DNA of 64,000 bases from a virus: positions 197,693-261,692 of the IMG/VR virus record IMGVR_UViG_3300045988_137032; one strand, written 5' to 3'. The notes under the pieces were generated by a model that was given only the letters and a program-made list of their open reading frames with translations, was not told the origin of the DNA and ran no database searches. Every line of letters begins with the position of its first letter. Position 1 is the stretch's first letter. This document shows positions 11,008 to 60,986 of this stretch, in pieces. Made by a program: the position numbers and the translations under genes.

Positions 11008-11013
11008 AAATTA

Positions 11014-20545: not shown

Positions 20546-22909
20546 TTAGTCTACAGGATCATCAATTGTCACAGCCAGAATCTTATTCCGACTATTACCA
20601 CACTTGAAGACCTTCTTCGGAGATGCTGCTCTAGTAAGCAAAGGAACATCACCAGAAGAAATCGATTCATTGCCAGTCTTGGTATATGCATTGATCGTGC
20701 TACCGGGTTTAATCCCGCAGACTCTGACAAGACGCTCATTAGAATCCATCGTAAGGAGAGAAACCATTTCCTTCTTCTTAGTCAGAGGGAAATACTTCAT
20801 CTCAGTCACCTTTGCTCTGCCGAGATCAGTGACATAGAGAATGAATTTGTCCTTGGAAGAGATTCCGTTAAAGCCAACGCAATACTCGTTCTTGGAAAGG
20901 TTAATCATAGCCTTTCCCTGAGCAGCAGGCTTCAATACAGGAATATCGGAAAGCTCTTTCCGGAGTCCATTACCTTCATCGGTATAGATCACAATGTTGT
21001 TGATAGACTTATCAATAGAGAAAGCAACGTTAACGAGCTCATCTCCATCTGTCACATTGATTACAGACATGGTCTTGAAGTTGGAAGAAAGCTCATTGAT
21101 ATTGATAGCCTTCATGATACCATTTCTGGTAAGGAAGATACCAAAGATAGAATGCTTCTCAAGCTGAGCCTTTGTAGGTTGACGAAGAACTGCAACCACC
21201 TTGTCAATCCCCTTGCAATATCTTGCCAGAGGAATGCCATCATCATCAGGAGTTGCATCAGGGAGAGTATGAACCGGAATACGATACGCAATGCCATTGC
21301 TGTCAAATACGATCAAAGACCGTTCGTTATTGACAGGAATCACCATCGTACGAGTGCTCATCTTTTCCCCGATCTTACCAACATTACTCTCTTCGAGGAG
21401 TACCTTCTTAATGAATCCATCCTCAGAGACAGCAACGCAATGATCAGTGGCTTCAATTTCATCATCATTGCCTTCTTTCACAACGGCGCTCTTACGAGGA
21501 GTACCAAACATCTTAATGCCATCTTTCAGCTGCTGGATGATAACTTCATCAATCTTGGAATCATTATCCAGAGTAGCTTCCAGATCTTTAATCTGCTTGA
21601 TAAGCTCAGGGCCCTTTGCCTTATATGCGCTATAAGCTTCCTTCGTGAATGCCTGAATACGCATATTAGAAATGGTGGTTGCTTGCTGTGAATTGATACC
21701 GTACTTGGCCATCAATGCTTTTGCAAATGTGTCCTTGTTAGCAGACTCACGTGCAAGCTTGATGGTAGCTTCTGCATTCTTTCCCTCAAGGATAAGAAGC
21801 AGAGCATCGTTGATATTCTTCTCTTCCATCGTAGCAATCAGCTTCGAGTTAAAAGAAGAACGTACGGTATCTCTACGATAGGAAATCCAATCCAGAAGGA
21901 AAGACTTTACACCGTAGTCATAATCACGATAGTCATCGACCATCTTAAGACCAACCGGATAAGTCTTCTTCAGACCAGTTCCCTTCGTATAGAGTTTCTC
22001 GATCGTTTGATAAGGATTTGCGTTCTGGTCGAGATAGATAAGCGTTTTCACCGTACGCTCACCAGAGTAATCCTTGATGTCTTTGATCTCATCAAAGACC
22101 TTCTTCTCACGAAGTTCAACGATCTTACGGATAATGTCGTCGATAGTAGTCTGAAGAGGAATAGAGGTAATCGTAATGATATTCCTCTGAGAATCCACTT
22201 CGCATCTACCACGAAGTGTGAATGTGCCAATACCATCGGTATTGATCTTCTGGAATTGGCCATCATCCACAATGTCTGCTCCCGTAGGAGAATCCGGAAT
22301 CAAGAGAATCTTTGCATCCGAGTTCTTCAGGAGCGTAATGGTTGCATCCAAAACTTCCTTGAAGTTGAACGGAGGAATATTAGATGCAAATGCATAACCA
22401 ATACCAGACAGCTGAGGATTGATCAATGCATTGGGATATTTTGCAGGAAGATATTCAGGCTCCACATCGTCTCCAGTATACGTAGGCTTCATGTCTACAT
22501 TGGAGATATCGAAATCCTTGAAGAAGCATTCCAGTGCATACTTAGAGAGTTTGCACTCGATGTATCGAGAAGCTGCTGCTTCATCGGACTTATAGGAACC
22601 GAAGTTACCCTGACCTTCAACTGTAGTCAGATTATTTGCAATCGGAGAAGCCATCTTTGCACCAACGTCTTCAACCGATGCAGAGCCATGAGGATGATAT
22701 GCTGCTGTTGTATCGGCAGCAGCTTTTGCCATCTTAATGAATTGAGTACGACCCTTTCCCTTATAGAGAGAATACAGGAATCGTCTCTGGACAGGTTTCA
22801 ATCCGTCAATCATAGACGGGATAATACGATAGAGGTTCTTATTTGCACCAAAGAGCTTGATGTAATTTTCACACTCTTCTGCAAGATTCTTACGAATTAT
22901 TTGCTCCAT
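20546..22909 (-). CDS. type IIA DNA topoisomerase, subunit A (GyrA/ParC/T4 gp52-like)
   Basis: 'IDGLKPVQRRFLYSL', 'AAYHPHGSASV', 'AASRYIECKLSK' (catalytic Tyr context). ATG at 22909 with AAAGGTGA SD. Confidence 0.9.
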   Translation of the reverse strand: MEQIIRKNLAEECENYIKLFGANKNLYRIIPSMIDGLKPVQRRFLYSLYKGKGRTQFIKMAKAAADTTAAYHPHGSASVEDVGAKMASPIANNLTTVEGQGNFGSYKSDEAAASRYIECKLSKYALECFFKDFDISNVDMKPTYTGDDVEPEYLPAKYPNALINPQLSGIGYAFASNIPPFNFKEVLDATITLLKNSDAKILLIPDSPTGADIVDDGQFQKINTDGIGTFTLRGRCEVDSQRNIITITSIPLQTTIDDIIRKIVELREKKVFDEIKDIKDYSGERTVKTLIYLDQNANPYQTIEKLYTKGTGLKKTYPVGLKMVDDYRDYDYGVKSFLLDWISYRRDTVRSSFNSKLIATMEEKNINDALLLILEGKNAEATIKLARESANKDTFAKALMAKYGINSQQATTISNMRIQAFTKEAYSAYKAKGPELIKQIKDLEATLDNDSKIDEVIIQQLKDGIKMFGTPRKSAVVKEGNDDEIEATDHCVAVSEDGFIKKVLLEESNVGKIGEKMSTRTMVIPVNNERSLIVFDSNGIAYRIPVHTLPDATPDDDGIPLARYCKGIDKVVAVLRQPTKAQLEKHSIFGIFLTRNGIMKAININELSSNFKTMSVINVTDGDELVNVAFSIDKSINNIVIYTDEGNGLRKELSDIPVLKPAAQGKAMINLSKNEYCVGFNGISSKDKFILYVTDLGRAKVTEMKYFPLTKKKEMVSLLTMDSNERLVRVCGIKPGSTINAYTKTGNESISSGDVPLLTRAASPKKVFKCGNSRNKILAVTIDDPVD

Positions 22910-23002
22910 AAAAATCACCTTTCATATTTCTTTTGGTAGTTTGTATTTACATAATACACCATCCTATATATACGTTACTTAGACTATTGATTTACAGAAA
23001 GA

Positions 23003-23085: not shown

Positions 23086-25509
23086 TTAGTTGTCCAGATC
23101 ATCGCGTTTAATTTTGTAAGCACTCATCATCTCTTTACGTGCACGGAGATCATCCTCCGTAGTACCATGAAGCTTTGCAAAGATCTTCAGATCATGCTCC
23201 ACATCATCCATGGTGAGCTGAATGAGAATGCGATTATTGGGATCAAGAGTAGTATCCCAAAGTTCCTTACCATTTGCTTCACCAAGTCCCTTAAAGCGAG
23301 ACAGAATACGTGCTTTGTACTTATTGGCAGAATCAAGGAATTCGCCAATGCTCATCTTCTGCTCAGGGCCATCCTTCTCACGAACCTTCATACCATATCC
23401 ATATTCTTCATAGATCGGAATGAGGTCTTCGACCTTCTTGATGAAACGGTCAGTAATCTTGATGGACTGGAACTTACCATCGATAATACCAGTAATGGAT
23501 CCCTTGTCAGTTACTTTCAACTCAGGGAATTTCTTCTGGAGCATCTCGGTAAACTTCAGCAGGAACTTCTGGTTCGCAAAGAGAGATGCAATATCACTCT
23601 TAGCATATCCATTCATAACGAGATAGGCTGCAATTCGTTCCACAAGGAACTTATTGACGCCGAAGTGATTTGCTACACGGGTCAGCTCATCAGGATAGAA
23701 TTCAGTATCATAGATGAACTGCTTAAAGACAGAATTCTTCAGATAGTCTTTACCAGCGCTTTTAAGGATAACCTTGTAGTTCTTCAGTACCTTATCCTGA
23801 TATGCTTCGATGTACTCGTTCTTTGAACGGACAAACGGAGTCTTCTTATCATCAATATGATACAGAGGAGCAATTGCCTTATAGAGCTTACCAGCCTTTA
23901 CCAGCTCCGGCATATACAGTGCATGGAAAGCACCAATACCAGAGGAGATATTATAGCCATCGACATCAGAGTCTGTCTCAATGATAATCTTGTCATAGTA
24001 GCAATTGGCAAGATTAAACTTGGGGCCAAAGTTCGTCTTCAGAAGTTTGACGTAGGTATACCATTCCTTATTATTCAGAATGGTAGCAGCATCTCTCTTG
24101 AAGCCATTGGCCGTAACACCACGGAAGCTAAAGAATGCCTGTGTATCAGGATCACGTCCGTTCACCAGAGAACCTGCTGCGGAACGTCCCTCACAGATAT
24201 GCAGTTCCTTATATGCTTTACCGTCGTTGTTACAGGGAGTAAAGTTTGGAATCTTATGCTTGTCGAACTTATTGACAGTTTCCTTGATTGTCTGCTCACG
24301 AATCTTGGATGCATCAACACGAGCTTTGCAGTTCGTCTTAATGACCTTCACGATAGATGCAAGTTCATCCTTATGCTCAGAATCAGTATAGTACTTCTCC
24401 AGAGCATCCGTAGCAATTTGCTTAATAGGATTAAACAGCATATCGTTGGAGATCTCATTCTTCGTCTGACCAACGAACTGCATCTGAGCATCCGTGAAGA
24501 TATTCACAACCAGATTCATACCGGATTCGATATCAACCTTCAGAATGGAATACTTATTCTTCTCACGGTCAGACAGAGCCTCATTGGTCTTCTTCATAAA
24601 GAATCTCCAGATAGCTTCACGTACTGCATTCAGATGAACACCACCAGAGGTAGTATTGACATAGTTACAGAACGAATCCACCCAAGGCTCCAGAGTCGTA
24701 GAATAGCAGAAGGAAAACTGCAAGGAAAGACTTCTCTTGATCGTCTTCTCTCCACGATAGTCTTCTGTCAGTTTGGTATCTCCGGAGAAATTCTTCGGCT
24801 TAATGAGCATCGTATCCGTCACATGAGACTTCAAGAGATCACTCAGATTACCGGACTTATACTTCGTGGTAGAGATCACTTTCTCCATACCCTTCACAAC
24901 CGTATAGACGATCTTACAATCGGAAGGGATAAAATACGAAATACCATCCAGCCATTCTTTCAGATCATCCTTATTGATGATTGCAGATTTTCCGAGGTAC
25001 TTCGTAGAGGGAATAAACTTGAGAATACAACCGTGCTTCTTAGAAGTTTTTCTCGTAGAATCTTTCACAAGATTGCCGGATTCAAACTCAATGGTATGAC
25101 ATGTACCATCACGGTGAGATTCCCAACGGAATAACGAAGACAGAGCATTGGTTGCAGTCAGACCAACACCGTTTTCGCCAGAGGAAGCACCACCCTGTTC
25201 ACGGGTGAACTTACTACCGGAATTTAACTTAGTGCAAAGAATCGTCATCGGGATTTCAGCAGTCTCAGGAATACCACGACCATCATCCTCTACCTTCAGA
25301 GAACCATCGTTCACATCCAGAGTTACCTCGATATTCTTTGCAGGACTTTTAGGGTTGGCACATTCATCAATAGCATTCTGAATAACTTCCTTTGCCAGAT
25401 GCAATGCACCCTTACGGCCGACATACGAAATATACATGCCGGTCTTCATTTGAATCTTTTGAATATCCGACTCGATGTATTCCATCTTGTCATCTTTGTA
25501 TTGTGCCAT
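23086..25509 (-). CDS. type IIA DNA topoisomerase, subunit B (GyrB/ParE/T4 gp39-gp60-like, unsplit)
   Basis: GHKL motifs 'KEVIQNAIDE', 'EDDGRGIP', 'GENGVGLTA'. Toprim 'ICEGRSAAGS' and 'IETDSDVDGYNI'. 'RFKGLGEANGKELWDTTLDP'. Confidence 0.9.
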   Translation of the reverse strand: MAQYKDDKMEYIESDIQKIQMKTGMYISYVGRKGALHLAKEVIQNAIDECANPKSPAKNIEVTLDVNDGSLKVEDDGRGIPETAEIPMTILCTKLNSGSKFTREQGGASSGENGVGLTATNALSSLFRWESHRDGTCHTIEFESGNLVKDSTRKTSKKHGCILKFIPSTKYLGKSAIINKDDLKEWLDGISYFIPSDCKIVYTVVKGMEKVISTTKYKSGNLSDLLKSHVTDTMLIKPKNFSGDTKLTEDYRGEKTIKRSLSLQFSFCYSTTLEPWVDSFCNYVNTTSGGVHLNAVREAIWRFFMKKTNEALSDREKNKYSILKVDIESGMNLVVNIFTDAQMQFVGQTKNEISNDMLFNPIKQIATDALEKYYTDSEHKDELASIVKVIKTNCKARVDASKIREQTIKETVNKFDKHKIPNFTPCNNDGKAYKELHICEGRSAAGSLVNGRDPDTQAFFSFRGVTANGFKRDAATILNNKEWYTYVKLLKTNFGPKFNLANCYYDKIIIETDSDVDGYNISSGIGAFHALYMPELVKAGKLYKAIAPLYHIDDKKTPFVRSKNEYIEAYQDKVLKNYKVILKSAGKDYLKNSVFKQFIYDTEFYPDELTRVANHFGVNKFLVERIAAYLVMNGYAKSDIASLFANQKFLLKFTEMLQKKFPELKVTDKGSITGIIDGKFQSIKITDRFIKKVEDLIPIYEEYGYGMKVREKDGPEQKMSIGEFLDSANKYKARILSRFKGLGEANGKELWDTTLDPNNRILIQLTMDDVEHDLKIFAKLHGTTEDDLRARKEMMSAYKIKRDDLDN

Positions 25510-25618
25510 AAAATCGCCCTTTCTATTTTCATGCGTAGTCCTATACGGATTAAATGAAAGTTTCCCATATTCTTGGATTAAATCCTTCGGAACATAGTAA
25601 CTTGTCTAGCATGAAAAA

Positions 25619-25662
25619 AAGAATCCCACATGAATCGACTATCGAAATCATGTGGGATTCTT
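25619..25662. terminator. bidirectional-type terminator after the tubulin operon
   Basis: 15-bp stem aagaatcccacatga/tcatgtgggattctt, flanked by an A-run and a T-run. Confidence 0.8.
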
Positions 25663-25738
25663 TTATTTAACTGCAGTTAAATACAGCAATTTTGACGCGA
25701 TTGCTATACTTAGAATTTCGACTTACCTAAGTCTGGAA

Positions 25739-26311
25739 TTAGTACCAACCACCGGTAGCACCATTGTTGTGGTTACCACCATTCTTATGATTCTTCTTGT
25801 TGCCGCTGATCTCATCATCCTTGATGACGATGCTCAGGAACTTACGGTCGACCTTGTTGGCCAGCTTCTCACGGTTCATGGTGCAGAAGTGGGAACGCTC
25901 AACGGGAACACCAGGACGCATCATGCCCTTTGCGAAACCGATCTGGTCACGAACCTCACGCATTGCGTTGACCTGCTTATCGAAATCGTCCAGACCAACT
26001 GCAACGGAAGGAATGTCACGGCCGCAGATACGGCAGGTGATCATACCATCTGCACTCTTATAGGTGGCTGCCTTGCGCTTGCCCTTCTTGTTGTTGAAGC
26101 AGTGCATGCAGCCTGTCTTCAGCATCTTCTTATCGCCCTTATTCAAGCCCTTCAGCTTGAAGCGCTTGGACAGATGATCGGAAATGCTGGAGATGGGATC
26201 AGACATGGCCTTGCTGGCGAGCATCTGATTCATCGAACGCTCGTCGATCTTCTTGCCGATCTTGGCCATCTTCTTCTCGGAAAGACCACCCTTATACTTA
26301 TTCTTGCTCAT
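25739..26311 (-). CDS. basic zinc-ribbon protein with Gly/Asn-rich C-terminal tail (orphan)
   Basis: AAGGAGGA SD. Lys-rich. 'CMHC' ... 'CRIC'. Tail 'NKKNHKNGGNHNNGATGGWY'. G/C-ending codon class. Last gene of the tubulin transcription unit. Confidence 0.7.
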   Translation of the reverse strand: MSKNKYKGGLSEKKMAKIGKKIDERSMNQMLASKAMSDPISSISDHLSKRFKLKGLNKGDKKMLKTGCMHCFNNKKGKRKAATYKSADGMITCRICGRDIPSVAVGLDDFDKQVNAMREVRDQIGFAKGMMRPGVPVERSHFCTMNREKLANKVDRKFLSIVIKDDEISGNKKNHKNGGNHNNGATGGWY

Positions 26312-26329
26312 TGTATTTTCCTCCTTGTA

Positions 26330-27325
26330 TTAGAAATACTTCTCGTTATCCTTGTTACGCTCAATGATCTTCTTCATAGCATTGAGCGTCTTCGGATACT
26401 CATTCTCCGGCAGGCTGCTGATATAGAACCGGCGAGCACTGTCACGATTGTTGTTCTCGTCATCCTTACGCCAATTGACGTACAGAGTGAGAACCAGGTT
26501 GATGGTTTCCTTATCCAGAGTTTCCAGCTTGGTGAATGCCCAAGTGGTGAGGTCGTTGAACAGCTTCTTCTGAGTCTCAGTCATGCTGTTCATGCGCTCC
26601 TTCTTCTCCAGAATGACGCATGCGATAAAGGTCGGGATATACTCCTCGCCCTTACGGAAGATGAAGTCGATGAGATCACCGACATCAACTGCCAGCGGCT
26701 TATCCTTAGCCATCGCATACATGGAAGTCAGAAGCTTACGATAGATGTAGAACTTCTTGCTGCTACGGTCGTCGTTCTTGATATTCAGAATCTCGACCGT
26801 CGGAATGATGCACAGGCAGCTGTATGCGGTTGCCTCATCAATACCGGATTTCTTAGCCTTCTTCAGGCGCTTGGCCATAATGGCCTTGCTGGTCTCAAGC
26901 ATATCATCGATATCCGGGACCTTGGTCTCACTGTCAGTGGACTCATTGTTGCACTGACGGGTCAGAGACTCAGCGATGTCCTGGCAAATGACAGGATAGA
27001 GAACCATGTTCTCAAAGCCATCACCCTTATCCACCGACTTGAAGGTAACCTTCACGAAATCGGGATCGGTGATGACCTCATAGAGATCGTTCTTGATCTC
27101 CTTAACCTCGTTCCGATAACCATACTTGATCAGAAGAGGAATCACGGCATGACCGAACACGTCGAGCTTCTCAGCAAAGAATGCTTTCTTTGCTTCCTTC
27201 TTGGAAGAATAGAAGTCGTTCTCCTTCTTCCACTTCTTGAAGGTGATCATGAAACCCTTGGTCACGTCCTTGGGAATCTTAAATTCCCCACCACCACGGT
27301 TACCGTTGTTGTTTTTCTTAGACAT
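26330..27325 (-). CDS. hypothetical helical protein with Gly/Asn-rich N-terminal tail (orphan)
   Basis: Start moved to the ATG at 27325 (AAGGAGGC SD). N-terminus 'MSKKNNNGNRGGGEF'. 331 aa. Confidence 0.7.
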   Translation of the reverse strand: MSKKNNNGNRGGGEFKIPKDVTKGFMITFKKWKKENDFYSSKKEAKKAFFAEKLDVFGHAVIPLLIKYGYRNEVKEIKNDLYEVITDPDFVKVTFKSVDKGDGFENMVLYPVICQDIAESLTRQCNNESTDSETKVPDIDDMLETSKAIMAKRLKKAKKSGIDEATAYSCLCIIPTVEILNIKNDDRSSKKFYIYRKLLTSMYAMAKDKPLAVDVGDLIDFIFRKGEEYIPTFIACVILEKKERMNSMTETQKKLFNDLTTWAFTKLETLDKETINLVLTLYVNWRKDDENNNRDSARRFYISSLPENEYPKTLNAMKKIIERNKDNEKYF

Positions 27326-27444
27326 AATTTTTGCCTCCTTGTTTTTAACGGTATATATATTATCCCACAAAAGAGGGGATAGTCAAATTTACCAGAGTGT
27401 AACCACACTGCTAAATAACTATTCCCTCTTAAATGAAATCAGAT

Positions 27445-28581
27445 TTATACTCCGAACTTACTGAAGATATCCTGAAGATCAAGCTTGGAACCTGCTTCAT
27501 TCTTCTTCCGAGTATGTGCAACCTTCTGATTCAGACTGGTGAGATCAATATCATTCAGAGCAGACTCATCAGCCTTGCTCTTACTCTGTGCTTCATTGAT
27601 CTCATCAATCCGCTCGTTGATCTTACGGAGACGATCATTGGCCTGAGACATACCGGAACATACAAGGAATACATTGCTCGGAAGATGACGATCTTCCAGA
27701 ACTGCAATGTGCTCAAACTCCTCAACAGGAGTACCGATCACCTGCAGAACCTTCGGAATGTGAGTATCAAACCCATCATTCAGTTCTGCATTCAGAACGC
27801 TGATCACACCAGTTCTTGCAACGATACCATCACGCTCCAGATCTGCAATTGCAGAAGTCTTCAGAGACTCAACGATGGCAGTCTCGATATCAACGGAATT
27901 GACATCACGACGCTTGTCGATATTCTCAACACCAGCAACAACCAGACGACCCGGAGTATTGATGATATTGAGCATATCGCGCTCATCGATACTGCTGTAC
28001 TTCGTAGCAACCTGATAAGTGCCACGGAGAACATCAATATCCTTCACGATCTGCTCGTTGACTGTCTGCATCATTGCAACGGCAGTCTTCGGAACACGAT
28101 CATTGTCGTACAGCATATAGGTGTTATCACCCATAGAACCATACAGCTCTTTCAGATACTCAACCGAATTCAGCTGAGTACTCAGTGCCTCCTTCAGAGT
28201 CGGAAGAACACCGATCGTGACGACCGTACACTTCGTGAAGACCTCACGAATGATATTGGTCATCAGAATACTGGTACCAGAACCAGTGCCACCACCAGTG
28301 GAACTGACAACGAAGACAACATCAACACCGAATACATCCTGATACGTCGTATCATTCAGAATATTCATGATGCTGGTCTTCAGCATTTCCTTTGCGGCTG
28401 CACGTTCCTTACCGGCACCCTTCGCGTCACCGATCATAAAGTTCGGCACATCCTTCGGTAATGTCTGCAGATCACGCTCGGAAGAATTGATTGCCAGCAC
28501 AGGCACATTCAACTTCTTCATTGCAAGAGCGGCAACCTGACTACCACAGTTACCGATACCAATGACTGATACGTCTAACAT
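27445..28581 (-). CDS. tubulin/FtsZ-superfamily GTPase (PhuZ/TubZ-like)
   Basis: 'VIGIGNCGSQ' and tubulin signature 'SSTGGGTGSGTS'. Start moved to the ATG at 28581 (GGAGGT SD 8 nt upstream; the track ATG at 28596 is part of that SD). Confidence 0.8.
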   Translation of the reverse strand: MLDVSVIGIGNCGSQVAALAMKKLNVPVLAINSSERDLQTLPKDVPNFMIGDAKGAGKERAAAKEMLKTSIMNILNDTTYQDVFGVDVVFVVSSTGGGTGSGTSILMTNIIREVFTKCTVVTIGVLPTLKEALSTQLNSVEYLKELYGSMGDNTYMLYDNDRVPKTAVAMMQTVNEQIVKDIDVLRGTYQVATKYSSIDERDMLNIINTPGRLVVAGVENIDKRRDVNSVDIETAIVESLKTSAIADLERDGIVARTGVISVLNAELNDGFDTHIPKVLQVIGTPVEEFEHIAVLEDRHLPSNVFLVCSGMSQANDRLRKINERIDEINEAQSKSKADESALNDIDLTSLNQKVAHTRKKNEAGSKLDLQDIFSKFGV

Positions 28582-28642
28582 TTGACTTACCTCCATATAA
28601 ATTTTTCGTATAATAAGTAATGGTTATTACTTTCATACCTTA

Positions 28643-28653
28643 ATATAATATAT
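28643..28653 (-). promoter_or_regulatory. promoter-like core ATATATTATAT (tubulin operon)
   Basis: Exact core 61 nt upstream of the tubulin ATG at 28581, just after terminator 28664-28715. Confidence 0.55.
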
Positions 28654-28663
28654 AACTAAAAAT

Positions 28664-28715
28664 GCCGCATGAATAGATGGTACCAATAGAGATATTGGGC
28701 ATTTATTCATGCGGC
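28664..28715 (-). terminator. hairpin/terminator upstream of the tubulin promoter core
   Basis: 12-bp stem gccgcatgaata/tattcatgcggc with a 28-nt loop, then ATTTTT on the minus strand. Confidence 0.55.
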
Positions 28716-28756
28716 CAGTTTATTTAGCTTACAGACATCAAATATGTGTTTGTTGA

Positions 28757-33717: not shown

Positions 33718-34392
33718 ATGCCTAGAAATCTTCCCGGTATTGAATACAACCAGGAAAAGAATGAATCAGGAAAACTGATTCCCTTCATTGACGCTGGAGA
33801 TAGCATGTATCAGATCCCTCTGTACAAAGGGGTTGAGTATTTCTCGAATATTGACTCATACACAAACTTTATCAAAGGTTGCGAACGTATGGTGAGAACG
33901 AGTGATCGTTACTCTAAATATATCTATTATCTCAAGAATGTAATCGGACTGGATCATTGTCAGGTATTACCTGAAGTGGAACCTGACGTTGAAGGTAAGA
34001 TTGAAATTGAGATGCACCATGGACCTATTTTCACATTATTTGATTATTGTGAAATTATGACCGAATGGTTTATTCTGAATGGTAAGAAAATCAGTACCTT
34101 CCGAATTGCTGACGAAGTGTTAAATGAGCATCAGTTAAACCACGTACAGGTCGTAATGCTTTTAGCTACCGTTCATGAAGAAGTTCATAACCGCAATATC
34201 TTCATCAACTACAATCAGGCTTGGGGAGATCTCAATGCTTTTATTGATCGATATGGTGTGGCTATGAGTGATAGACTGAAAGAAAAACTCAATAAGTACA
34301 TCGATAAATCTATGATGTACGATAGCAATGACTTCAATATTCTCCAGCTCAATAATACGTTAATCCGTATATCAGCTCAGAAAGGAGACTAA
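33718..34392 (+). CDS. HNH-like (His-Me finger) protein, paralog of 43842..44507
   Basis: 'LDHC...KIEIEMHHGP...NEHQLNHV...VHEEVHN', an H-N-H-like spacing. Collinear similarity to 43842..44507. Confidence 0.5.
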   Translation: MPRNLPGIEYNQEKNESGKLIPFIDAGDSMYQIPLYKGVEYFSNIDSYTNFIKGCERMVRTSDRYSKYIYYLKNVIGLDHCQVLPEVEPDVEGKIEIEMHHGPIFTLFDYCEIMTEWFILNGKKISTFRIADEVLNEHQLNHVQVVMLLATVHEEVHNRNIFINYNQAWGDLNAFIDRYGVAMSDRLKEKLNKYIDKSMMYDSNDFNILQLNNTLIRISAQKGD

Positions 34393-36961: not shown

Positions 36962-39900
36962 TTAACGACGACGAATCACAAAGCTCTGATCTCCACCATC
37001 GTTACTATTTTTATTCTGAGACTTTGCCTGATTAACCTCCCTCTTTACTTCCTTCCTGATGTTCGGGAAGTATTCTTCCACGGAATCATCATAATCATCA
37101 TCGTCCTCCACTTCATCCTCTTCAGGTTCAGGGGATTCTACGGGAAGACCGGCGTCAGCACGTTTCTTGTTAACGAATGCTTGTACCTTCTGGGCAATGA
37201 CATCAACCGTCTCGAAATCTTCGGTTTCATCCAATGCTGTAAAGAAGGTTCCAACTGCTGTTGCTAACTCATGTTTCGGATCCTCCGGTTCAGGTTCTTG
37301 GACAACTTCAGCTTCCACATGCTCGACAGGTTCGTCTGTCTTCACATCAGGAGATTCTTCCTCCGGATGCTTCTCATAGAACATGCCGACAACATCAGCA
37401 GGTTGAGACACAGGTTCTGTAGTGGTTCCTTCATCAGGAGTTTCCGTATCGGCTTCACTAGTATCCTCAAGGACATACTCAAAGATACTATCATAGAAGT
37501 TCGGATCCGTAACCACCTTGTTATGAGCAAGTGTATCAAATGTGATATCGGGAGTATTTAGAATCTTGGTAAACCGTTCTGCTTCCTCCTTACTATCAGC
37601 ATCGTCGATATGGTCCTTGATGTCATCAGACATCATGGACTTATCACGGAAGTCCTTGATGAATGCTTCACACATCACCTTGTTATTTTCACCGGTAACC
37701 ATTGCATCGAATACCGGAGAACCATTCAAGGTATTGAGGAAACTAAATCCATCCAGATCACTCATGATCTTGATATACTTCTTAAAGAAGGAAACCAGCT
37801 TTCCTTCCTCAAGAGCATACTGCATGGCTTCCATGAGATCAGATTCCAAAGAATCATCCAGATGATAACCAGCCACATACTTATTACCCAAACGGATACA
37901 CATATAATCCTGTGCTGGGATCTTAACTCCAGCAGTCATCGAATTAAACTGATCCTTCGTCAGGATAACAGCAGGACGGAAGTTAATGAACGACTCATAG
38001 AACCATTCAACGAATGCCGTGAAGTTTGCCATGATGATTTCCATGCTTGCGTCATTCTCTGTCATGATGGGATCATCCGTTGCTTCCAGATAATCGAAAT
38101 TGATACTGATGGTATTCACCGTATCGGACAGAGTAAAGACGTTGTCATAGTTGTCACCAAAGTGAGTTTCTGCCATGACATCGTAATACGGAGTATCCTC
38201 ATCCTCTGCATTAATCAGAAGATCAGGATCCGACTTCTCCTCTTCAGAAGTTGCCTCAGCAGGTTCCTCGGCAGGTTCTTCTGCAAACATGATTTCATCA
38301 CGTTCCGGTTCTTCCTCTTTAGTAGTTTCCTTCACAGGTTCTTCCTGCTTAATGGGAGGATAAACCACATGATCGTGACGAACACGGGAGTTCGATATAC
38401 CATTAAGCTCCGTAATGGTATACTCACCATTCTCATCCTTGTAATAAAGAGTTGCCCCAGTGCGGATGGAACCGTCGACGATATCCTCATCACAAACACG
38501 AGGAATATTCAAAGTTGCCTTCCGAGACTCGGTAGTCTTCTGTGCACGTGCCGCGGATTCCTTTACAGACTTAAGGATGTCGTCCTCACTATCGAACTCC
38601 TCAGACAGATGCTCCTTCTTGGCAGTAGTCGAAGTACCAAAATACTTGGCGAAATATCCAGCATATGCAGGAAGATCACCCAGAGCATACTTAATGGTCT
38701 CGGGATTCTTACTTGCAAAATACTTGAATACGTCATCAATTTTAGCAACCTGATTATCCTCAGGATGCTTCGGGCAACCATTCTTTGCATCCATCAGAGC
38801 ACGCATCATCTTACGATGATAATCATCAGGATCCATACCGGTAGGTGCTTCAGGTTCTACCTTTGGAGTTTCAACCGGCTTTTCTTCCGGTTCATCATCC
38901 TCATCTTCATCATCAGAGGTATCGAGGAAGCTATAATCATCAGCTTCCTCTTTACCAATGGTATCAGCGAGACGATGAGTATCCTTGGATGCCAGTTTAC
39001 CCATATCGACAACAGCATCATTCGTATCGATATTCTGAGAACTCAGCCATGCATCAAACTGAGCACTGTCATCGGACGGATCAAACGAATCGAGATCGAC
39101 ATCATCGTCGTCTTCATCTTCGTCCTCGTCATCCGAGGATTCCTGATTATTACGACGAATTCCGGTTGCGGTGAGTTCAGGAAGATCATCGTCATCATCC
39201 TCCTCTTCCTCATCGTCTTCGTCATCATCTTCATCGTCGTCATCGACCTCAAGAAGACTGCTGTCAATCTTCTTACGGTTATAACCCATAGACTGAAGAA
39301 TCTGATCATTCTCGTCGTCATCATCGTCTTCTTCCTCTTCATCAGAATCAGAGATGAATCCGAATTCTTTTGCAAGATCGCCATCCCAAGGTGCTTCTTC
39401 CTTGGGAGATTCCGTCTTCTTCTCCTTCTTCGGAGGTTCGGGAGTTGCAACAACTTCCTCTTTCTTTTCTTCAACCGGTTCAGGCTTCTCAGAAGGATTC
39501 AGGACACTTGCAAAATTCTCACGGAGAAGTTCAACCAACCGATTGGTATCTTCGGTATCCTCCTCATACTTGAAATACTTGTGGACATACGGTTTCGGAT
39601 TACCAAAGAAATCCTTATCATTCTTATGACGCTCTGCTTCCTTTGCATGACGGATTTCTTTCTCCTTGGCAATCTGCTTCTTGAGACAATCGATCTGCTT
39701 TTGGTTCACAGGATGACCAGTTGCGGCTTCAATCTCATCACACAGATTACCCAATGCTACGAGAGCATCGATATAGTTCTTTGCACGTTCCTGCTTAGAA
39801 GGACGCTGTGCATAGAGCGTATATGCCAGATAGTGAATGTCTTCCCGAACCGTAGGGTCGGGATTGACATACAAATTGGGATCGTTCCGAACGCTTTCCA

Positions 39901-39964
39901 AAATGCCGGTATAAAGTTCTTCCGGCAAATTGAATACGTTACGCTTTTTATGCTTCTTGGACAT
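36962..39964 (-). CDS. hyper-acidic 1000-aa protein (long poly-D/E tracts)
   Basis: AAGGAGGA SD. Runs such as 'SDSDEEEEDDDDDENDQ', 'EVDDDDEDDDEDDEEEEDDDDDLPE', 'SSDDEDEDEDDDDVDLDSF', 'TSDDEDEDDEPEE', 'EPEEDEVEDDDDYDDSVEE'. Confidence 0.75.
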   Translation of the reverse strand: MSKKHKKRNVFNLPEELYTGILESVRNDPNLYVNPDPTVREDIHYLAYTLYAQRPSKQERAKNYIDALVALGNLCDEIEAATGHPVNQKQIDCLKKQIAKEKEIRHAKEAERHKNDKDFFGNPKPYVHKYFKYEEDTEDTNRLVELLRENFASVLNPSEKPEPVEEKKEEVVATPEPPKKEKKTESPKEEAPWDGDLAKEFGFISDSDEEEEDDDDDENDQILQSMGYNRKKIDSSLLEVDDDDEDDDEDDEEEEDDDDDLPELTATGIRRNNQESSDDEDEDEDDDDVDLDSFDPSDDSAQFDAWLSSQNIDTNDAVVDMGKLASKDTHRLADTIGKEEADDYSFLDTSDDEDEDDEPEEKPVETPKVEPEAPTGMDPDDYHRKMMRALMDAKNGCPKHPEDNQVAKIDDVFKYFASKNPETIKYALGDLPAYAGYFAKYFGTSTTAKKEHLSEEFDSEDDILKSVKESAARAQKTTESRKATLNIPRVCDEDIVDGSIRTGATLYYKDENGEYTITELNGISNSRVRHDHVVYPPIKQEEPVKETTKEEEPERDEIMFAEEPAEEPAEATSEEEKSDPDLLINAEDEDTPYYDVMAETHFGDNYDNVFTLSDTVNTISINFDYLEATDDPIMTENDASMEIIMANFTAFVEWFYESFINFRPAVILTKDQFNSMTAGVKIPAQDYMCIRLGNKYVAGYHLDDSLESDLMEAMQYALEEGKLVSFFKKYIKIMSDLDGFSFLNTLNGSPVFDAMVTGENNKVMCEAFIKDFRDKSMMSDDIKDHIDDADSKEEAERFTKILNTPDITFDTLAHNKVVTDPNFYDSIFEYVLEDTSEADTETPDEGTTTEPVSQPADVVGMFYEKHPEEESPDVKTDEPVEHVEAEVVQEPEPEDPKHELATAVGTFFTALDETEDFETVDVIAQKVQAFVNKKRADAGLPVESPEPEEDEVEDDDDYDDSVEEYFPNIRKEVKREVNQAKSQNKNSNDGGDQSFVIRRR

Positions 39965-40894: not shown

Positions 40895-42235
40895 TTACTT
40901 GAAAAGATGCATATCCTCCGAATAATCGTCCAAAGAAGAATACTCATCAGCGCCAGACGCTTTCAGTAAAGCTTTCTCAGCTTTCTTTTTCTTCTTCGTC
41001 TTGTCTTTCTTTTTCTTCTTGCTCACAAGCTCATCATAAGACTTACCGGCTTTCCGAGCTTCCCGACGCTTATCGAGTTCTTCGATACGCTTCTTCAGCT
41101 TCTTATGCTCTTTATCTTCCTGCTTGTGAATCTTCTCGAGCTTGCGTTCGGTCTCACTACGAGGATCCATGAATGCACGGATATTGAAACCGCCTTCATC
41201 CAGTGCATCACACATCTCAGCATACTCGGCGCTCTGAGGAGACTGATACTTATCACGATACAGGATAGAGCCATGAGTATACTGATAATGAACCAGATCA
41301 TCATAACGCTTATCCAAATCATCGAGACTGGTAATCGGACCAGTGATATCAGGACGATCATCATCGTGCCAAATACCACGCTTACGGTCTTCTTTCTCAA
41401 TCTCTTCGTAATCGTCTCGCTTATCGTAAATACCGCCAATGCCTTGTGCGGTGATACCTCTGGACTTATTCCTCTTGGAATCATCTTTGATTCTAGCAAG
41501 GATTGCATCCTGGGTTTCTTCGCCCATCTCGGCTTTGAACTTCTTACGGTCTTTCTTGTCATTGACAAAGACTTCAACCTCTGTCGGATGACCTTCATAA
41601 GCCCGCTGAAGACGTGCTTCGATTTCAGGATTCGGAAGAATATCATCGGACTCCAGTTCATCCACGACGCCATTGATGTTATTCATCAATTCCTTCAGAT
41701 CCTTATTGGGATCATCAATGAACTGACGGACATAATTCCAATCAATCGTCTTACGATTCTTTCCGATATACGTAGGATAAGTGATACCAACAACTGTGAC
41801 ATCACCATTGAATGCACGCTCCCAGAAATCTCCAACCTCATAAGAGCAGTTCTGTGTTGCAACAAGTGCCATACACTTATTGCACTGACGAACTGCTCTC
41901 ACATATTCGTCGAGCTTATTGATCTTACGCTTTATATTACGAAGCTTAGAAAACTCCTGGTAATAAGTTTGACGAGACTCTTTCTCACTATCAGTAAGAT
42001 TATAGTCATCGTCTTCGCCGTAGTCATGGACTGCAACATGATCCATCATCCTTTCCAATTCTTTACGTTCGTTGTCGGTCAGTTTACGGAGTCTGATTTT
42101 AACCGGTTCTTTACTCCGCCTCTGAGACCGTCTGACTGCATCTTCAGCTTCCATCTTTTGGACTGCGTCCTTATCAGAGGAAACGGTTTCTGATGCGGTA
42201 CCAAGGTTAAACACCAAGGTATCCAATTCGCTCAT
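40895..42235 (-). CDS. highly charged hypothetical protein (poly-Lys C-terminal tract)
   Basis: Start moved from TTG (42244) to the ATG at 42235 (AAGGAG SD 9 nt upstream). 'KKKKKDKTKKKKKAEK' near the C-terminus. Confidence 0.65.
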   Translation of the reverse strand: MSELDTLVFNLGTASETVSSDKDAVQKMEAEDAVRRSQRRSKEPVKIRLRKLTDNERKELERMMDHVAVHDYGEDDDYNLTDSEKESRQTYYQEFSKLRNIKRKINKLDEYVRAVRQCNKCMALVATQNCSYEVGDFWERAFNGDVTVVGITYPTYIGKNRKTIDWNYVRQFIDDPNKDLKELMNNINGVVDELESDDILPNPEIEARLQRAYEGHPTEVEVFVNDKKDRKKFKAEMGEETQDAILARIKDDSKRNKSRGITAQGIGGIYDKRDDYEEIEKEDRKRGIWHDDDRPDITGPITSLDDLDKRYDDLVHYQYTHGSILYRDKYQSPQSAEYAEMCDALDEGGFNIRAFMDPRSETERKLEKIHKQEDKEHKKLKKRIEELDKRREARKAGKSYDELVSKKKKKDKTKKKKKAEKALLKASGADEYSSLDDYSEDMHLFK

Positions 42236-42286
42236 TTTATTCAACTCCTTAGATTTTAAAATGTGTGTGATATGTCCTACCTACGA

Positions 42287-42305: not shown

Positions 42306-43613
42306 TTATTCCTTGAATTCCTTCATCTGCTTGTCGATGTTGGCAAGGCACATAGCCTGAAGCTTTGCAGGAGAATACTTAAAGGGTTTTGCTTCAAGTT
42401 CTTCCTTGCTCAAAACATCTTCCAGCTTAAGGTCATAGACTTTGCACATCTCACGAGCGAGTTCTTCGTCAAACTCATTCATCTGGATATGCAGGTCAAA
42501 GCGGCCATAACGCTTCACAGCAGGATCAAGTTTATCGTAGTAATTGGTAGTAGCGACACAGATAGAGACAGGATACATCAGACCATCATTCGCTTTAAAG
42601 AAGAAGGTGGGAGGATTATCAAGGAACGACAAAACATTTGCCATTGCAAGGGAATCCGTCTTGGATGCATTCTTGTCATCACGTGCTTTGCAAACACAGT
42701 CTATATCATCAATAGAATAGATGATAGGAACCAGTTCACCATACGGAGCACTGATGTTGGAACTGACCTCAAACTTATTGGGAGAGATCGGCATAATGCG
42801 ATGGATGCTGAGATGATTTGCAAGTGCCTGACAGAAAGTGCTTTTACCAGTACCAGGCTCACCATAGAGGATAACAGACAGCTTGGAAATCATGTTATAC
42901 TTCTTATAGAAGTAAGGGATATTATTGACCCAATTGTCAATATACTTGATAACCTTATCCTTATCTCTCATGACAAGGCTATCAAAGGATTTGAATACGG
43001 TCTTCTTATCACCACCGTAGTCATCATCAGAGCGACTAGAACTGATGAAATAATCGGAAAGAGATTTCTCAGATTCCTTGATAAACTTCTCCTTTTCTGC
43101 GATAATGGAATCAAAGACTTCTTTCCAGTTCTTACCGATAATCCAAATATCGAAATGAATCATCGAATCTGCATCATAATAAGATTTCCGATCTCCACCA
43201 GATTCAATGAAACTAGAAACCTTCAGATACAGATAAGTTTTCTTACCGGCTTTCACATAGTATTCACCAGCTTCCAGAGTATTCCGGACCATATCACGGA
43301 GATACTCGGAAACATCAGCACGGCTATTCTTAGGACCGCCAGTCTCATAATCTTCGAGCTCACGGCGGTGCTTTTTCAGCTCAGGATCCAACTCAATCAT
43401 ACGGGAGCATACGATCTTATAGAACATCGCTTCCGTAGTATCCTGAATCAAATATGGATTGTAATTGCCAGAGATTTTCTTGGCAAGGTTATTAGAAGCC
43501 AGCATAGGGAACTTGGGGGTCACTGTGCTGGCTTCTTCCTCTTCAGACCCTTCATCCGGATCATACAAATAGAGGTCAAAAATACGATCTTCGATACCTT
43601 GATACTTACGCAT
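42306..43613 (-). CDS. classic-clade AAA+ ATPase
   Basis: Walker A 'LYGEPGTGKSTF', Walker B 'IIYSIDDIDCV', second region of homology 'ATTNYYDKLDPAVKRYGRFD'. Confidence 0.85.
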   Translation of the reverse strand: MRKYQGIEDRIFDLYLYDPDEGSEEEEASTVTPKFPMLASNNLAKKISGNYNPYLIQDTTEAMFYKIVCSRMIELDPELKKHRRELEDYETGGPKNSRADVSEYLRDMVRNTLEAGEYYVKAGKKTYLYLKVSSFIESGGDRKSYYDADSMIHFDIWIIGKNWKEVFDSIIAEKEKFIKESEKSLSDYFISSSRSDDDYGGDKKTVFKSFDSLVMRDKDKVIKYIDNWVNNIPYFYKKYNMISKLSVILYGEPGTGKSTFCQALANHLSIHRIMPISPNKFEVSSNISAPYGELVPIIYSIDDIDCVCKARDDKNASKTDSLAMANVLSFLDNPPTFFFKANDGLMYPVSICVATTNYYDKLDPAVKRYGRFDLHIQMNEFDEELAREMCKVYDLKLEDVLSKEELEAKPFKYSPAKLQAMCLANIDKQMKEFKE

Positions 43614-43841: not shown

Positions 43842-44507
43842 TTATGCATGGGAAAGTTCTTCCATCGGAACTTTCTGAGGAAGCTGGAAACCATCCACCT
43901 TGAGATATACGAAAGAAGGAGTAAGCTTCGAGAGCATCTGTGCATTAAACTTTCTGCTCTCAATTGCTTTTGCTTCAAACTTATCAAGGATAGATGTATC
44001 ACCATCGTAATCAAAATAATCCGCATATTCGTCCATGAACTTACGGTAATTACCATAAATCAGATTAAACGGGATTACGATGTTATCGGAAAAATGCACC
44101 ATCTGATGCAAAGACTTGGATAGAGGAATCAGTCCAACCATATTCTCGTAATGAAGCTTCATAACTTCATCAGAAATATAAAGCTCATTCAAGGGAATAC
44201 CATCTTTCAAAAACCGATTCAGTACGACATTCGTGATATCGTACAGGGTAAACGGTTCATGATGGATTTCGATACGAACACGGTTGCCATTTCCATTCTC
44301 TACGTTGTTAAAGAACGCGCAATGATTCATATCGACATACTCTTTCAAATACGAGATGTAATCTCGATATTCCATAGAAGAACGAATGGTACGCTCACAA
44401 CGCTTAATGAACTTAACTTTGTCTTTTGCATTATTGAGTGTAACTGTGTATTCCATATCTTCCGGAGCTTCGAAAGTACGTGTTACAATTCGATCAATTC
44501 CAGGCAT
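43842..44507 (-). CDS. HNH-like (His-Me finger) protein, paralog of 33718..34392
   Basis: 'MNHC...RVRIEIHHEP...KLHYENMV...LHQMVHF'. 'FIKRCERTIRSSMEYRDYISYLKEYV' matches 'FIKGCERMVRTSDRYSKYIYYLKNVI' in the paralog. Confidence 0.5.
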   Translation of the reverse strand: MPGIDRIVTRTFEAPEDMEYTVTLNNAKDKVKFIKRCERTIRSSMEYRDYISYLKEYVDMNHCAFFNNVENGNGNRVRIEIHHEPFTLYDITNVVLNRFLKDGIPLNELYISDEVMKLHYENMVGLIPLSKSLHQMVHFSDNIVIPFNLIYGNYRKFMDEYADYFDYDGDTSILDKFEAKAIESRKFNAQMLSKLTPSFVYLKVDGFQLPQKVPMEELSHA

Positions 44508-60933: not shown

Positions 60934-60986
60934 GGTTAAAAATAACCGTATACAGTTTTGATGCTGTATACGGTTATTTTTTAACC
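60934..60986. terminator. 22-bp hairpin overlapping the stop of 60981..62003
   Basis: ggttaaaaataaccgtatacag/ctgtatacggttattttttaacc. Confidence 0.7.

Follow-up and report, generated by a model that had tools for sequence, protein, structure and literature searches.

What does a tubulin do in a jumbo phage when its gene stands beside neither a shell protein nor a known adaptor? To our knowledge, phage tubulins are understood in two settings only, PhuZ spindles and TubZRC. PhuZ (phiKZ gp39, 201phi2-1 gp59) builds the spindle that keeps the chimallin nucleus at the centre of a Gram-negative host cell, and TubZRC partitions prophages maintained as plasmids; the type III system of Clostridium phage c-st consists of TubZ, TubR and tubC/S plus TubY. 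The answer that we favour for the locus described here, tentatively and a little short of even confidence, is that its tubulin, from a jumbo phage, is cytomotive and of TubZ type, is made early and positions DNA, a replication factory or capsids, with two neighbouring proteins, A and B, as accessory factors.

The window analysed comprises 64,000 nt of the record IMGVR_UViG_3300045988_137032, about a quarter of a phage genome of ~250 kb. An earlier note had called three open reading frames here, quoted peptides from A and B, and placed both subunits of a type IIA topoisomerase after B; the three frames, their strand and the peptides were all found in the DNA, and Pfam and PHROG agree on the topoisomerase. 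The features of the locus are as follows.

20546..22918, minus strand: GyrA/ParC-like type IIA topoisomerase subunit (Pfam and PHROG matches)
23086..25509, minus strand: GyrB/ParE-like type IIA topoisomerase subunit (Pfam and PHROG matches)
25610..25667, minus strand: strong intrinsic terminator after B (20-nt arms, 95% complementary, then U7)
25739..26311, minus strand: protein B, 190 aa, pI 10.0 (alignments, AF2 model)
26330..27325, minus strand: protein A, 331 aa, all-helical, basic, pI 8.9 (AF2 model, synteny)
27359..27440, minus strand: strong hairpin between tubulin and A, with a short U-tract (inverted repeat)
27445..28581, minus strand: TubZ-like tubulin/FtsZ-fold GTPase, 378 aa (Pfam PF00091, hhalign, PDB profile)
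28638..28654, minus strand: promoter-like element TATATATTAT-attaag-G, 57 nt upstream of the tubulin start
28660..28715, minus strand: hairpin terminator closing the upstream virion-protein gene and isolating tubulin (inverted repeat, U-run)

The gene upstream of tubulin encodes a 294-aa virion-type protein, and virion proteins in the window are akin to those of AR9, PBS1, phiR1-37 and Staphylococcus jumbo phages; by sequence, the phage is a jumbo myovirus distantly similar to AR9 and phiR1-37. No near-identical or related DNA for the locus was found among GenBank phages. Homologues of the tubulin number more than 740, many on contigs of 100-295 kb, and the relatives with tubulin, A and B form a large clade of phages of ~220-295 kb that are binned with Firmicutes MAGs. 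Where relatives lie in genome records, these are MAGs from gut and rumen, under the labels Lachnospiraceae, Clostridia or Bacilli. The host is probably a gut or rumen member of the Firmicutes, and the phage probably infects Clostridia or Lachnospiraceae.

The tubulin and its nearest relatives

The assignment of the gene at 27445..28581 to the tubulins, made in the earlier note from two peptides, VIGIGNCGSQ and SSTGGGTGSGTS, holds: the protein matches Pfam Tubulin PF00091 (E=8e-16, 59 bits, cut-off 33), and it contains GIGNCGSQ (T1, GxGxxG) and STGGGTGSGTS (T4, GGGTGSG), neither of which varies within the family. In this superfamily an acidic residue of the T7 synergy loop completes the active site of the next subunit, which couples GTPase activity to polymerisation; here the loop contains an invariant S197-I-D199-E200-x-D202. 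T99 and D202, both invariant, are the aligned counterparts of T100 and E200 in c-st TubZ, whose E200 is the residue mutated in the studied E200A variant (PMC5322520). Judged from these alignments, the nucleotide-binding (T1, T4) and catalytic (T7) residues are conserved and the loops intact. The start at 28581 also agrees with the homologues, which are 376-383 aa long and begin with ML.V, and with GGAGG upstream of the ATG. At the C-terminus, a charged linker is followed by a conserved tip, ...LDLQDIFSKFGV.

Profile searches placed the protein in the family and pointed to one member of it. The best PDB matches of the family profile are c-st TubZ structures 4xcq (E=5e-17) and 3v3t (6e-15), and hhalign against c-st TubZ (CST189) aligned 312 of 358 columns, the tail among them, at a probability of 98% (E=9e-14) and ~26% identity; by this comparison, c-st TubZ is the closest characterised homologue, and the homology is full-length. 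The hhalign comparison with phiKZ PhuZ gave 49% over 109 columns confined to the N-terminal GTPase domain, to which the match of PHROG 4733 'tubulin PhuZ' (E=4e-10) is also limited. Assignment to the PhuZ type was rejected on these 109 N-terminal columns at 49%; the tail is also of a different type.

Membership of the FtsZ/tubulin superfamily, the label 'cell division GTPase FtsZ' that relatives carry in their sources, and a weak match to TIGR00065 ftsZ would suit a protein aimed at the host, an FtsZ mimic or antagonist that blocks or redirects division with A and B as modulators. We consider this very improbable, as the match reaches 33 bits, far under the 295-bit equivalog cut-off for FtsZ, the protein is nearer to TubZ than to FtsZ, and its tail resembles the c-st TubZ tip and is unlike any FtsZ-type C-terminal peptide.

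The kinship with c-st TubZ, a prophage partition motor whose TubR-binding tip is conserved here, raises a more serious alternative, namely genuine type III partition in the manner of TubZRC, keeping the genome as a low-copy plasmid-prophage or in a pseudolysogenic carrier state. B (or A) would then be a non-homologous centromere-binding protein, for which the basic character and zinc ribbon of B are suitable, and the centromere would lie elsewhere in the genome. PBS1/AR9-type phages, and jumbo phages generally, have been discussed as pseudolysogenic (PMC7824862), and several relatives were binned into bacterial MAGs. We nevertheless judge partition to be unlikely. No TubR homologue was found beside the tubulin gene, and the six-frame translation of the 64-kb window contained neither a TubR-like ORF nor a TubY. 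No iteron family or tandem array resembling a centromere (tubC/tubS) was seen in 25400-29800, nor were centromere-like repeats apparent in the rest of the 64-kb window, beyond which the genome extends for another ~190 kb. Lysogeny and plasmid-maintenance genes (integrase, repressor, Par) were likewise absent from the 64-kb window, related contigs resemble free phage genomes of 220-295 kb and not integrated elements, and the promoter described below resembles an early lytic type.

Transcription signals of the locus

The AT-rich early promoter consensus of the AR9 virion RNA polymerase is AAATATATATTAT-(6N)-G+1 (PMC5312081). The element upstream of tubulin agrees with it at 11 of 13 positions, the ten 3'-most in a row, and has the 6N-G as well. 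With at most one mismatch, TATATATTAT-6N-G occurs 16 times in the window (3.6 expected; 0 of 100 shuffles reach 16), and 24 of 42 distinct relatives have a copy upstream of their tubulin gene at a distance of no more than 200 nt, in most cases 60-100 nt. The promoter core pointed out in the earlier note is thus enriched in the window and recurs in relatives, and its match to the AR9 promoter suggests, by analogy, expression early in lytic infection. The cognate RNA polymerase was not seen in the window, so that the promoter is assigned by analogy: within these 64 kb no multisubunit RNA polymerase of the phage itself was noticed, and phiKZ RNAP-beta had no match in the six-frame translation. 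A split RNAP beta-prime ORF (NADFDGD) adjoins tubulin in a distant A-bearing lineage. A pattern search for beta-prime in the contigs of the phage's own lineage reached close relatives alone.

The terminators which had been proposed upstream of tubulin and after B are both real: the hairpin at 28660..28715 has an RNA folding energy of -30.5 kcal/mol (z=-7.1), and that at 25610..25667 has z=-7.6. Between them, however, lies the hairpin at 27359..27440 (-37.6 kcal/mol, z=-6.7), which overlaps a sigma-70-like TTGACT-16-TGgGATAAT and is kept after the tubulin stop in 47 of 53 relatives; it is a candidate leaky terminator or attenuator. This conserved hairpin splits tubulin from A and B and makes the single transcription unit of the earlier note doubtful: a single, simple operon of all three genes is improbable, and their co-expression is not assured.

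Proteins A and B

Protein A is modelled as an all-helical protein (AF2 pLDDT 84.8, pTM 0.77) with the conserved motifs LLERKE and RKxD..KD.NRRY.LSSL..DYPK. Of 86 related loci, 73 have its gene immediately 3' of tubulin, even where tubulin identity has fallen to 34%, and some lineages at 34-42% identity keep it there although B, topoisomerase II and the upstream gene can no longer be recognised. No match to A was found in Pfam, PHROG or NCBIfam, nor by sequence profile search of PDB, and a Foldseek search of PDB with the model returned generic HEAT/14-3-3-like scaffolds only, none significant (E of at least 0.2); the only fold matches were three uncharacterised gut 'Myoviridae sp.' proteins. 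A is a candidate scaffold or adaptor.

Protein B (AF2 pLDDT 86.4) begins with N-terminal helices, followed by a C-x-H...C-x-x-C zinc ribbon, a long helical hairpin, a lysine cluster and a Gly/Ser/Asn linker that ends in a terminal G-x-W with an invariant Trp. In the alignments C67, C92, C95 and W188 are invariant and H69 and G186 nearly so; the conserved metal ligands are therefore C67, H69, C92 and C95, and not the four cysteines that 'CMHC...CRIC' would imply. The family comprises ~104 cluster representatives, nearly all of 155-195 aa. B occurs in 56 of the 86 loci, never without A, and is missing from 17 A-bearing loci; the topoisomerase II B-like subunit comes after it in most loci with both A and B. 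Again there was no Pfam, PHROG or NCBIfam match, PDB profiles gave only sub-threshold matches to the Elf1 zinc ribbon and a designed TPR, and Foldseek against PDB returned ribosomal zinc ribbons and helical hairpins with E of at least 1.7, none of them significant. In 41 loci an unrelated gene X, which matches no family and is not found in the window, sits between A and B; it was rejected as a paralogue of A (hhalign probability 0.1%).

Neither protein is homologous to chimallin, TubR or TubY. As TubY homologues both were rejected (hhalign against c-st TubY below 1%), and B was rejected as a TubR homologue, having no similarity to c-st TubR. Of the description of A and B as orphans, what stands is that they have no known family or fold; both are nonetheless conserved families. 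The matched Gly/Asn tails, part of the earlier case for a different adaptor set, did not survive comparison, as the N-terminal stretch of A is not conserved, is absent in distant members and is no family feature.

The mean column identity is 66% in the tubulin alignment against 32-34% in those of A and B. A and B thus evolve much faster than tubulin, and adaptor proteins of partition systems also evolve fast (Hayashi 2020, PMC7762940). Charges are complementary, with a pI of 5.0 for tubulin and basic values for A and B. Linkage of A to tubulin outlasts the other synteny, and B keeps to loci that contain A. On the other side, the tubulin tip is equally conserved in lineages without A and B and could serve filament assembly or another partner.

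Do A and B then work with the tubulin? In c-st TubZ the tip of the tail is the interaction site for TubR/TubY (PMC5322520). Since the tip is common to c-st TubZ and to lineages that lack A, its conservation is no specific evidence of binding to A or B, and no co-variation of the tip with the presence of A or B was seen among the lineages compared. Because general synteny, including the upstream virion gene and topoisomerase II, is kept in the nearer clade, the adjacency of B is also weak evidence. These observations would fit a tubulin that is cytoskeletal by itself, with A and B unrelated early proteins that simply adjoin it: B could be, e.g., a regulator that binds nucleic acids or a phage RNA polymerase factor, its weak likeness to the Elf1 zinc ribbon and its combination of ribbon and hairpin recalling secondary-channel, Elf1/TFIIS-type factors, and A could be, e.g., a replication or host-takeover protein working with the topoisomerase. 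The conserved hairpin that ends or attenuates transcription after tubulin, the insertion of gene X and the A-bearing loci devoid of B are consistent with this as well. However, A still adjoins the 3' end of tubulin in distant lineages where the other synteny has dissolved, and neither protein has a significant match to a transcription-factor or replication family or fold; we rate mere adjacency as rather unlikely.

As conserved neighbours without known family or fold, A and B can reasonably be read as a different accessory set. This part of the earlier proposal is retained, though its argument from the tails is lost and the tip lends it no specific support. In the accessory-factor reading that we favour, the tubulin would polymerise with GTP into dynamic filaments. 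Its synthesis would begin early in the lytic cycle, at a promoter like those transcribed by a phage RNA polymerase that is injected into the host, and inside the cell the filaments would position or move phage DNA, a replication factory or capsids. A and B would replace TubR and TubY: B may be an adaptor or regulator that binds nucleic acid and/or membranes through its zinc ribbon, coiled-coil hairpin, lysine cluster and Trp motif, and A may be a helical scaffold for short peptide motifs, e.g., the tubulin tip or the tail of B.

A bolder version, which we hold to be doubtful, is that tubulin, A and B form an undescribed three-component cytomotive system restricted to a large clade of gut and rumen Firmicutes jumbo phages, with a swap of partners and a lytic organising role. 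Here the TubZ-type motor would have kept its ancestral partner-binding tip, and TubR and TubY would have given way to proteins of new fold: A, a helical scaffold for peptides, and B, a zinc-ribbon/poly-lysine tether to DNA or membrane. In lytically infected Gram-positive cells its task would be to organise phage DNA or a replication compartment that does not depend on chimallin.

The locus represents a third setting for phage tubulins, abundant and uncultured, in which a TubZ-like motor occurs in an AR9-like phage and none of the known adaptors is found. As partners of the tubulin, if they are such, A and B would be new adaptor folds for prokaryotic tubulin filaments and a concrete means of learning how infection of Gram-positive anaerobes is organised by jumbo phages. 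With its conserved tip peptide, the invariant Trp tail of B and confident models, the hypothesis lends itself to direct tests in vitro for which the phage need not be cultured.

Comparison with known phage tubulin systems

A tblastn search with the tubulin against 50,697 cultured/GenBank phage records, considered up to E<=1, matched Bacillus/Lysinibacillus phage G alone (gp138, 24% identity, E=8e-7). Its gp138 ('xxxxx') is an FtsZ/tubulin-like GTPase, also from a Firmicutes jumbo phage, and has no assigned function (PMC12484599). There the gene after tubulin encodes pyruvate phosphate dikinase, and the synteny with A, B and topoisomerase II is not shared; gp139 was rejected as a homologue of A, being this PPDK.

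With the PhuZ phages our phage shares a jumbo-phage tubulin, probably early in both, multisubunit RNA polymerases encoded by its wider relatives, and the positioning of phage DNA or capsids, which is the PhuZ paradigm and is proposed here. The characterised PhuZ phages, however, infect Gram-negative hosts, and the host here is probably one of the Firmicutes. Inspection by eye had suggested that neither a chimallin-like protein nor TubR lies beside the tubulin gene, and none was detectable in the 64-kb window. For chimallin, this means no match in a phmmer search with phiKZ gp54, an insensitive method applied to about a quarter of the genome; the large ORFs in the window had no Pfam or PHROG match.

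The c-st system is closer in the tubulin itself. Both proteins have a disordered charged linker and a conserved hydrophobic/basic tip, DLQDIFSKFG (motif DLxxIFSKF) here and DINDFFSKY in c-st TubZ, and in both loci an accessory gene lies directly 3' of the tubulin gene, that of c-st being tubY. The c-st system differs in having TubR (winged helix) and TubY (MerR HTH), homologues of which were not found here, and in residing in an SPbeta-like plasmid prophage instead of an AR9/phiR1-37-like jumbo myovirus. In TubY, a DNA-binding module and a coiled coil are joined to a lysine cluster with which the protein binds both DNA and membranes (Hayashi 2020, PMC7762940). B mirrors this architecture, by analogy only, in its putative N-terminal nucleic-acid-binding module, coiled-coil/helical hairpin, C-terminal lysine cluster and downstream position. 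The parts themselves are different: B has a zinc ribbon in place of the MerR-type HTH, the Gly/Ser/Asn linker of its tail closes with an invariant Trp where TubY has an amphipathic helix, and an intramolecular hairpin is predicted for B, whereas TubY is a parallel tetramer. Finally, the promoter here resembles a lytic-early type, unlike that of the c-st TubZ system, and c-st TubZ serves the partition of a prophage and not the lytic positioning that we propose for its homologue.

The tubulin and its relation to TubZ of phage c-st

The minus strand of 25739-28596 contains three consecutive ORFs, present as the earlier note had described them:

27445..28581(-), tubulin, 378 aa, acidic (pI 5.0)
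26330..27325(-), protein A, 331 aa, basic (pI 8.9)
25739..26311(-), protein B, 190 aa, very basic (pI 10.0)

Both subunits of a type IIA topoisomerase, confirmed by Pfam and PHROG, are encoded downstream of them. The two tubulin motifs, VIGIGNCGSQ and SSTGGGTGSGTS, were found in the 378-aa product, and the peptides quoted for A and B are present as well. The second ATG had been correctly chosen as the tubulin start: it is preceded by a good ribosome-binding site, GGAGG, and more than 100 homologs are 376-383 aa long, starting with ML.V. The protein matches Pfam Tubulin PF00091 (E=8e-16, exceeding the cut-off) and PHROG 4733 “tubulin PhuZ” (E=4e-10).

The best PDB matches of a profile built from 14 members of the family were two entries for TubZ of the Clostridium botulinum phage c-st (E=5e-17 and 6e-15). 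Archaeal CetZ and FtsZ ranked behind them; a role of the tubulin in interfering with host FtsZ is considered very improbable. In hhalign comparisons with family profile A1, c-st TubZ (CST189) aligned over 312 columns, into the C-terminal tail (98%, E=9e-14), whereas PhuZ of phiKZ, the tubulin of nucleus-forming phages, aligned over 109 N-terminal columns only (49%, E=2e-4). The family-invariant residues T99 and D202 align with T100 and E200 of c-st TubZ, and the variants T100A and E200A have been employed in work on c-st filaments (PMC5322520). The C-terminus of the family consists of a variable charged linker and a tip conserved as D-[LIM]-x-x-[IL]-F-x-K-[FY], represented by LDLQDIFSKFGV in the window and by IDINDFFSKYM in c-st TubZ, where the tip is regarded as a site of competition between TubY and the TubR-centromere complex (PMC5322520). 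The fold family and the catalytic residues are established, as is a homology with TubZ of c-st that extends to the tip. Taken together, the PDB ranking, the hhalign results, the aligned residues and the tip assign the protein, by sequence, to the TubZ type of the c-st kind (about 26% identity) and not to PhuZ.

Two conserved neighbor families

A and B had been regarded as orphans; in fact, both are families with conserved relatives. Word-indexed searches yielded only 16 relatives for A and two for B, because both diverge fast. Gene patterns were counted by profile searches anchored on synteny at 86 tubulin loci.

Gene patterns downstream of the tubulin in 86 loci
A, X, B: 41 loci
A, B: 15 loci
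A only: 17 loci
Neither A nor B: 13 loci

A lies immediately 3' of the tubulin in 73 of the 86 loci; B occurs in 56 and is always accompanied by A. An exhaustive profile search produced about 104 cluster representatives of the B family, nearly all of 155-195 aa. In the nearer clade the entire neighborhood of the tubulin is syntenic, which limits what adjacency there can say for A and B as adaptors. At 34-42% tubulin identity A still adjoins the tubulin, and B, topoisomerase II and the upstream virion gene were not found there. No other observation argues as strongly for a functional connection of A with the tubulin as this retained adjacency in distant lineages; conserved linkage is established for A and, to a lesser degree, for B.

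In 41 of the 86 loci A and B are separated by X, an unrelated conserved gene of some 318 aa (e.g., L027:8245-9201; also L024, L033, and L087) that has no Pfam or NCBIfam match. The window and its closest relatives lack it. The possibility that X is a paralog of A was rejected.

In the most divergent lineages (33-38% tubulin identity; L050, L051, L057, L059-L062, and L078), all without A and B, the tubulin gene is directly followed, after 0-94 nt, by that of a classic AAA (PF00004) ATPase of 433-800 aa, a pairing that could hint at a filament remodeling or disassembly factor. The homolog in the window (42306..43613(-), 435 aa) lies 14 kb from the tubulin and is 23% identical to the L057 protein (E=5e-6).

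Protein A is all-helical, with a confident AlphaFold model (pLDDT 84.8, pTM 0.77), conserved motifs LLERKE and RKxD..KD.NRRY.LSSL..DYPK, and invariant residues K158, P174, E239, K241, Q251, R285, D288, R297, R298, and Y309. Its N-terminal Asn/Gly/Lys stretch, singled out earlier as a feature, is a variable low-complexity leader absent from distant members. It has no sequence relative in the PDB and no significant fold neighbor there, the best being generic helical scaffolds (E>=0.2, TM<=0.26); matches in BFVD are limited to three uncharacterized proteins from uncultured “Myoviridae sp.” of the gut (TM 0.5-0.6). In the model of B (pLDDT 86.4), N-terminal helices lead into a beta zinc ribbon (residues 70-100) and a long hairpin of helices (106-171); a lysine cluster comes next, and the chain finishes with a disordered Gly/Ser/Asn linker closed by G-x-W. 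C67, C92, C95, and W188 are invariant; H69, G186 and several lysines are nearly so. No significant fold neighbor of B was found in the PDB, and similarity to Elf1-type zinc ribbons is sub-threshold (E=0.03-0.1). The folds of both proteins are novel.

The phage group and expression of the module

None of 50,697 GenBank phage records matches the window at the DNA level, and the sole tubulin match among them is gp138 of phage G (24% identity). Relatives come from metagenomes (more than 740 tubulin homologs, many on contigs of 100-295 kb), from IMG/VR (93 related loci, most on contigs of 220-280 kb) and from GTDB genomes (five hits, in MAGs of Lachnospiraceae, Clostridia and Bacilli, among whose record titles are “Clostridium sp. 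CAG:452” and MAGs from sheep and rumen). The adjoining 1296-aa virion protein has distant relatives (21-26% identity) among the virion proteins of AR9, PBS1, phiR1-37, Staphylococcus jumbo phages, BpSp and the Fusobacterium JD-Fnp phages. Small PHROG families of virion and head proteins account for the matches of the prohead protease and several further structural proteins. Phages of the AR9/PBS1/phiR1-37 type are jumbo phages with multisubunit RNA polymerases.

For the window's own lineage, the search of these 64 kb found no RNA polymerase. In one distant A-bearing lineage (among L063-L079), an ORF of about 520 aa with the beta-prime catalytic motif NADFDGD lies about 3-4.6 kb upstream of the tubulin on the opposite strand (e.g., L070:1348-2934), consistent with a split subunit of a multisubunit polymerase of the jumbo-phage type. 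Five ORFs of 340-1000 aa in the window have no Pfam or PHROG match (36962..39964(-), 40895..42244(-), 47297..48529(-), 58091..59284(-), and 60981..62003(-)) and are candidates for divergent virion or polymerase components; the 1000-aa protein is kept in relatives, with counterparts upstream of the virion genes in L001 and L002. Two paralogous ORFs, 33718..34392(+), 224 aa, and 43842..44507(-), 221 aa, which are some 10 kb from each other and differ in strand, both match phrog_12252, a family of unknown function, strongly (E=3e-44 and 1e-49). The GyrB-like subunit, a single 807-aa ORF in the window, is called as two genes of 526 and 276 aa, about 440 nt apart, in a relative with 55% identity (L004:14281-17133, from GCA_948859995.1); an inserted intron or intein-type element, or else a frameshift, could account for this.

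Ahead of the tubulin stands agtTATATATTAT-attaag-G (28638-28654(-), with the G at 28632), which matches the core of the early promoter of AR9, used by the virion RNA polymerase and defined by experiment as AAATATATATTAT-(6N)-G+1 (PMC5312081). The motif TATATATTAT-6N-G has 16 matches in the window against 3.6 expected, a number reached in none of 100 shuffles. Exact copies are intergenic and directly 5' of minus-strand genes; sites at 7972-7988, 10992-11008, 28638-28654, 46395-46411, 57478-57494 and others, all on the minus strand, precede a 237-aa ORF, a NAD-dependent ligase, the tubulin, a 173-aa ORF and a 155-aa ORF. Of 42 distinct relatives, 24 also have the motif upstream of their tubulin start, at a distance of up to 200 nt and mostly of 60-100 nt. 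Its enrichment and recurrence suggest, by analogy with AR9, that the tubulin is expressed early in lytic infection, and it could serve to define the early regulon of an uncultured phage.

The three genes had been proposed to form a single private operon, which holds only in part. The strong terminators on both flanks are real (z of the RNA fold -7.1 for the one preceding the tubulin, -7.6 for the one after B), but a third strong hairpin with a short U-tract (27359-27440, z=-6.7) separates the tubulin stop from A. Since a hairpin at this position, varying in sequence, is kept in 47 of 53 distinct relatives, the tubulin is probably a terminated or attenuated unit by itself. Expression of A and B, which are 18 nt apart and each preceded by GGAGG, would depend on read-through or on a start of their own; the hairpin overlaps a sigma-70-like site. 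Through the hairpin, A and B may be expressed independently of the tubulin. Lineages that lack A and B, and c-st itself, conserve the tip of the tubulin tail just as well, so that the tip gives no specific evidence for interaction with either protein. It is unlikely, given the linkage of A in distant lineages, that A and B are early proteins with no relation to the tubulin, e.g., a nucleic-acid-binding factor or an RNA polymerase factor.

Comparison with known tubulin systems

Our tentative preference is for a dynamic, GTP-driven TubZ-type filament, made early in lytic infection of a Firmicutes host, that would position phage DNA, replication centers or capsids. A would act as a scaffold, and B as a regulator or as a tether to DNA and/or membranes, in place of TubR and TubY. 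Partition adaptors are poorly conserved even inside one system type (PMC7762940), and the fast evolution of A and B (mean column identity 32-34% vs 66% for the tubulin) fits this report. A genuine partition system of a prophage or carrier state, with a non-homologous centromere-binding protein, appears improbable. Integrase, repressor and Par genes were not detectable in the 64-kb window, about one quarter of the genome. Neither the module nor its surroundings contain iterated repeats resembling a centromere, which also limits the reading of A and B as adaptors. The window has one sizeable non-coding repeat, a GAAA-type purine-rich tandem array at 49079-49156, between the ORFs 47297..48529(-) and 49544..50503(-), with periods of 4, 22, and 31 and a TRF score of up to 96.

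Phage tubulins are already known as a kind. What is new is a large clade, not described before, of TubZ-like tubulins carried by jumbo phages of the AR9-like kind, with genome-record relatives in gut and rumen Firmicutes MAGs, the two structurally novel neighbor families, and the lack, in these 64 kb, of all known accessory components. Neither chimallin, the shell protein of nucleus-forming phages, nor TubR or TubY was detectable there; for the vicinity of the tubulin, the earlier note had stated this of chimallin and TubR. No description of the module was found in the searchable literature; it is a well-defined, testable lead and not a demonstrated new system.

In c-st, tubR (81 aa), tubZ and tubY (239 aa, with a MerR HTH) follow each other on one strand. 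Profile comparisons of A and B with c-st TubY and TubR were negative. TubY has been described (PMC7762940) as a DNA-binding module at the N-terminus followed by a coiled coil, with a lysine cluster at the C-terminus that binds to DNA, to membranes and to the complex of TubR with the centromere. In B the parts come in the same order, with a zinc ribbon where TubY has the HTH, and B is likewise encoded 3' of the tubulin; the resemblance is one of analogy and not of homology.
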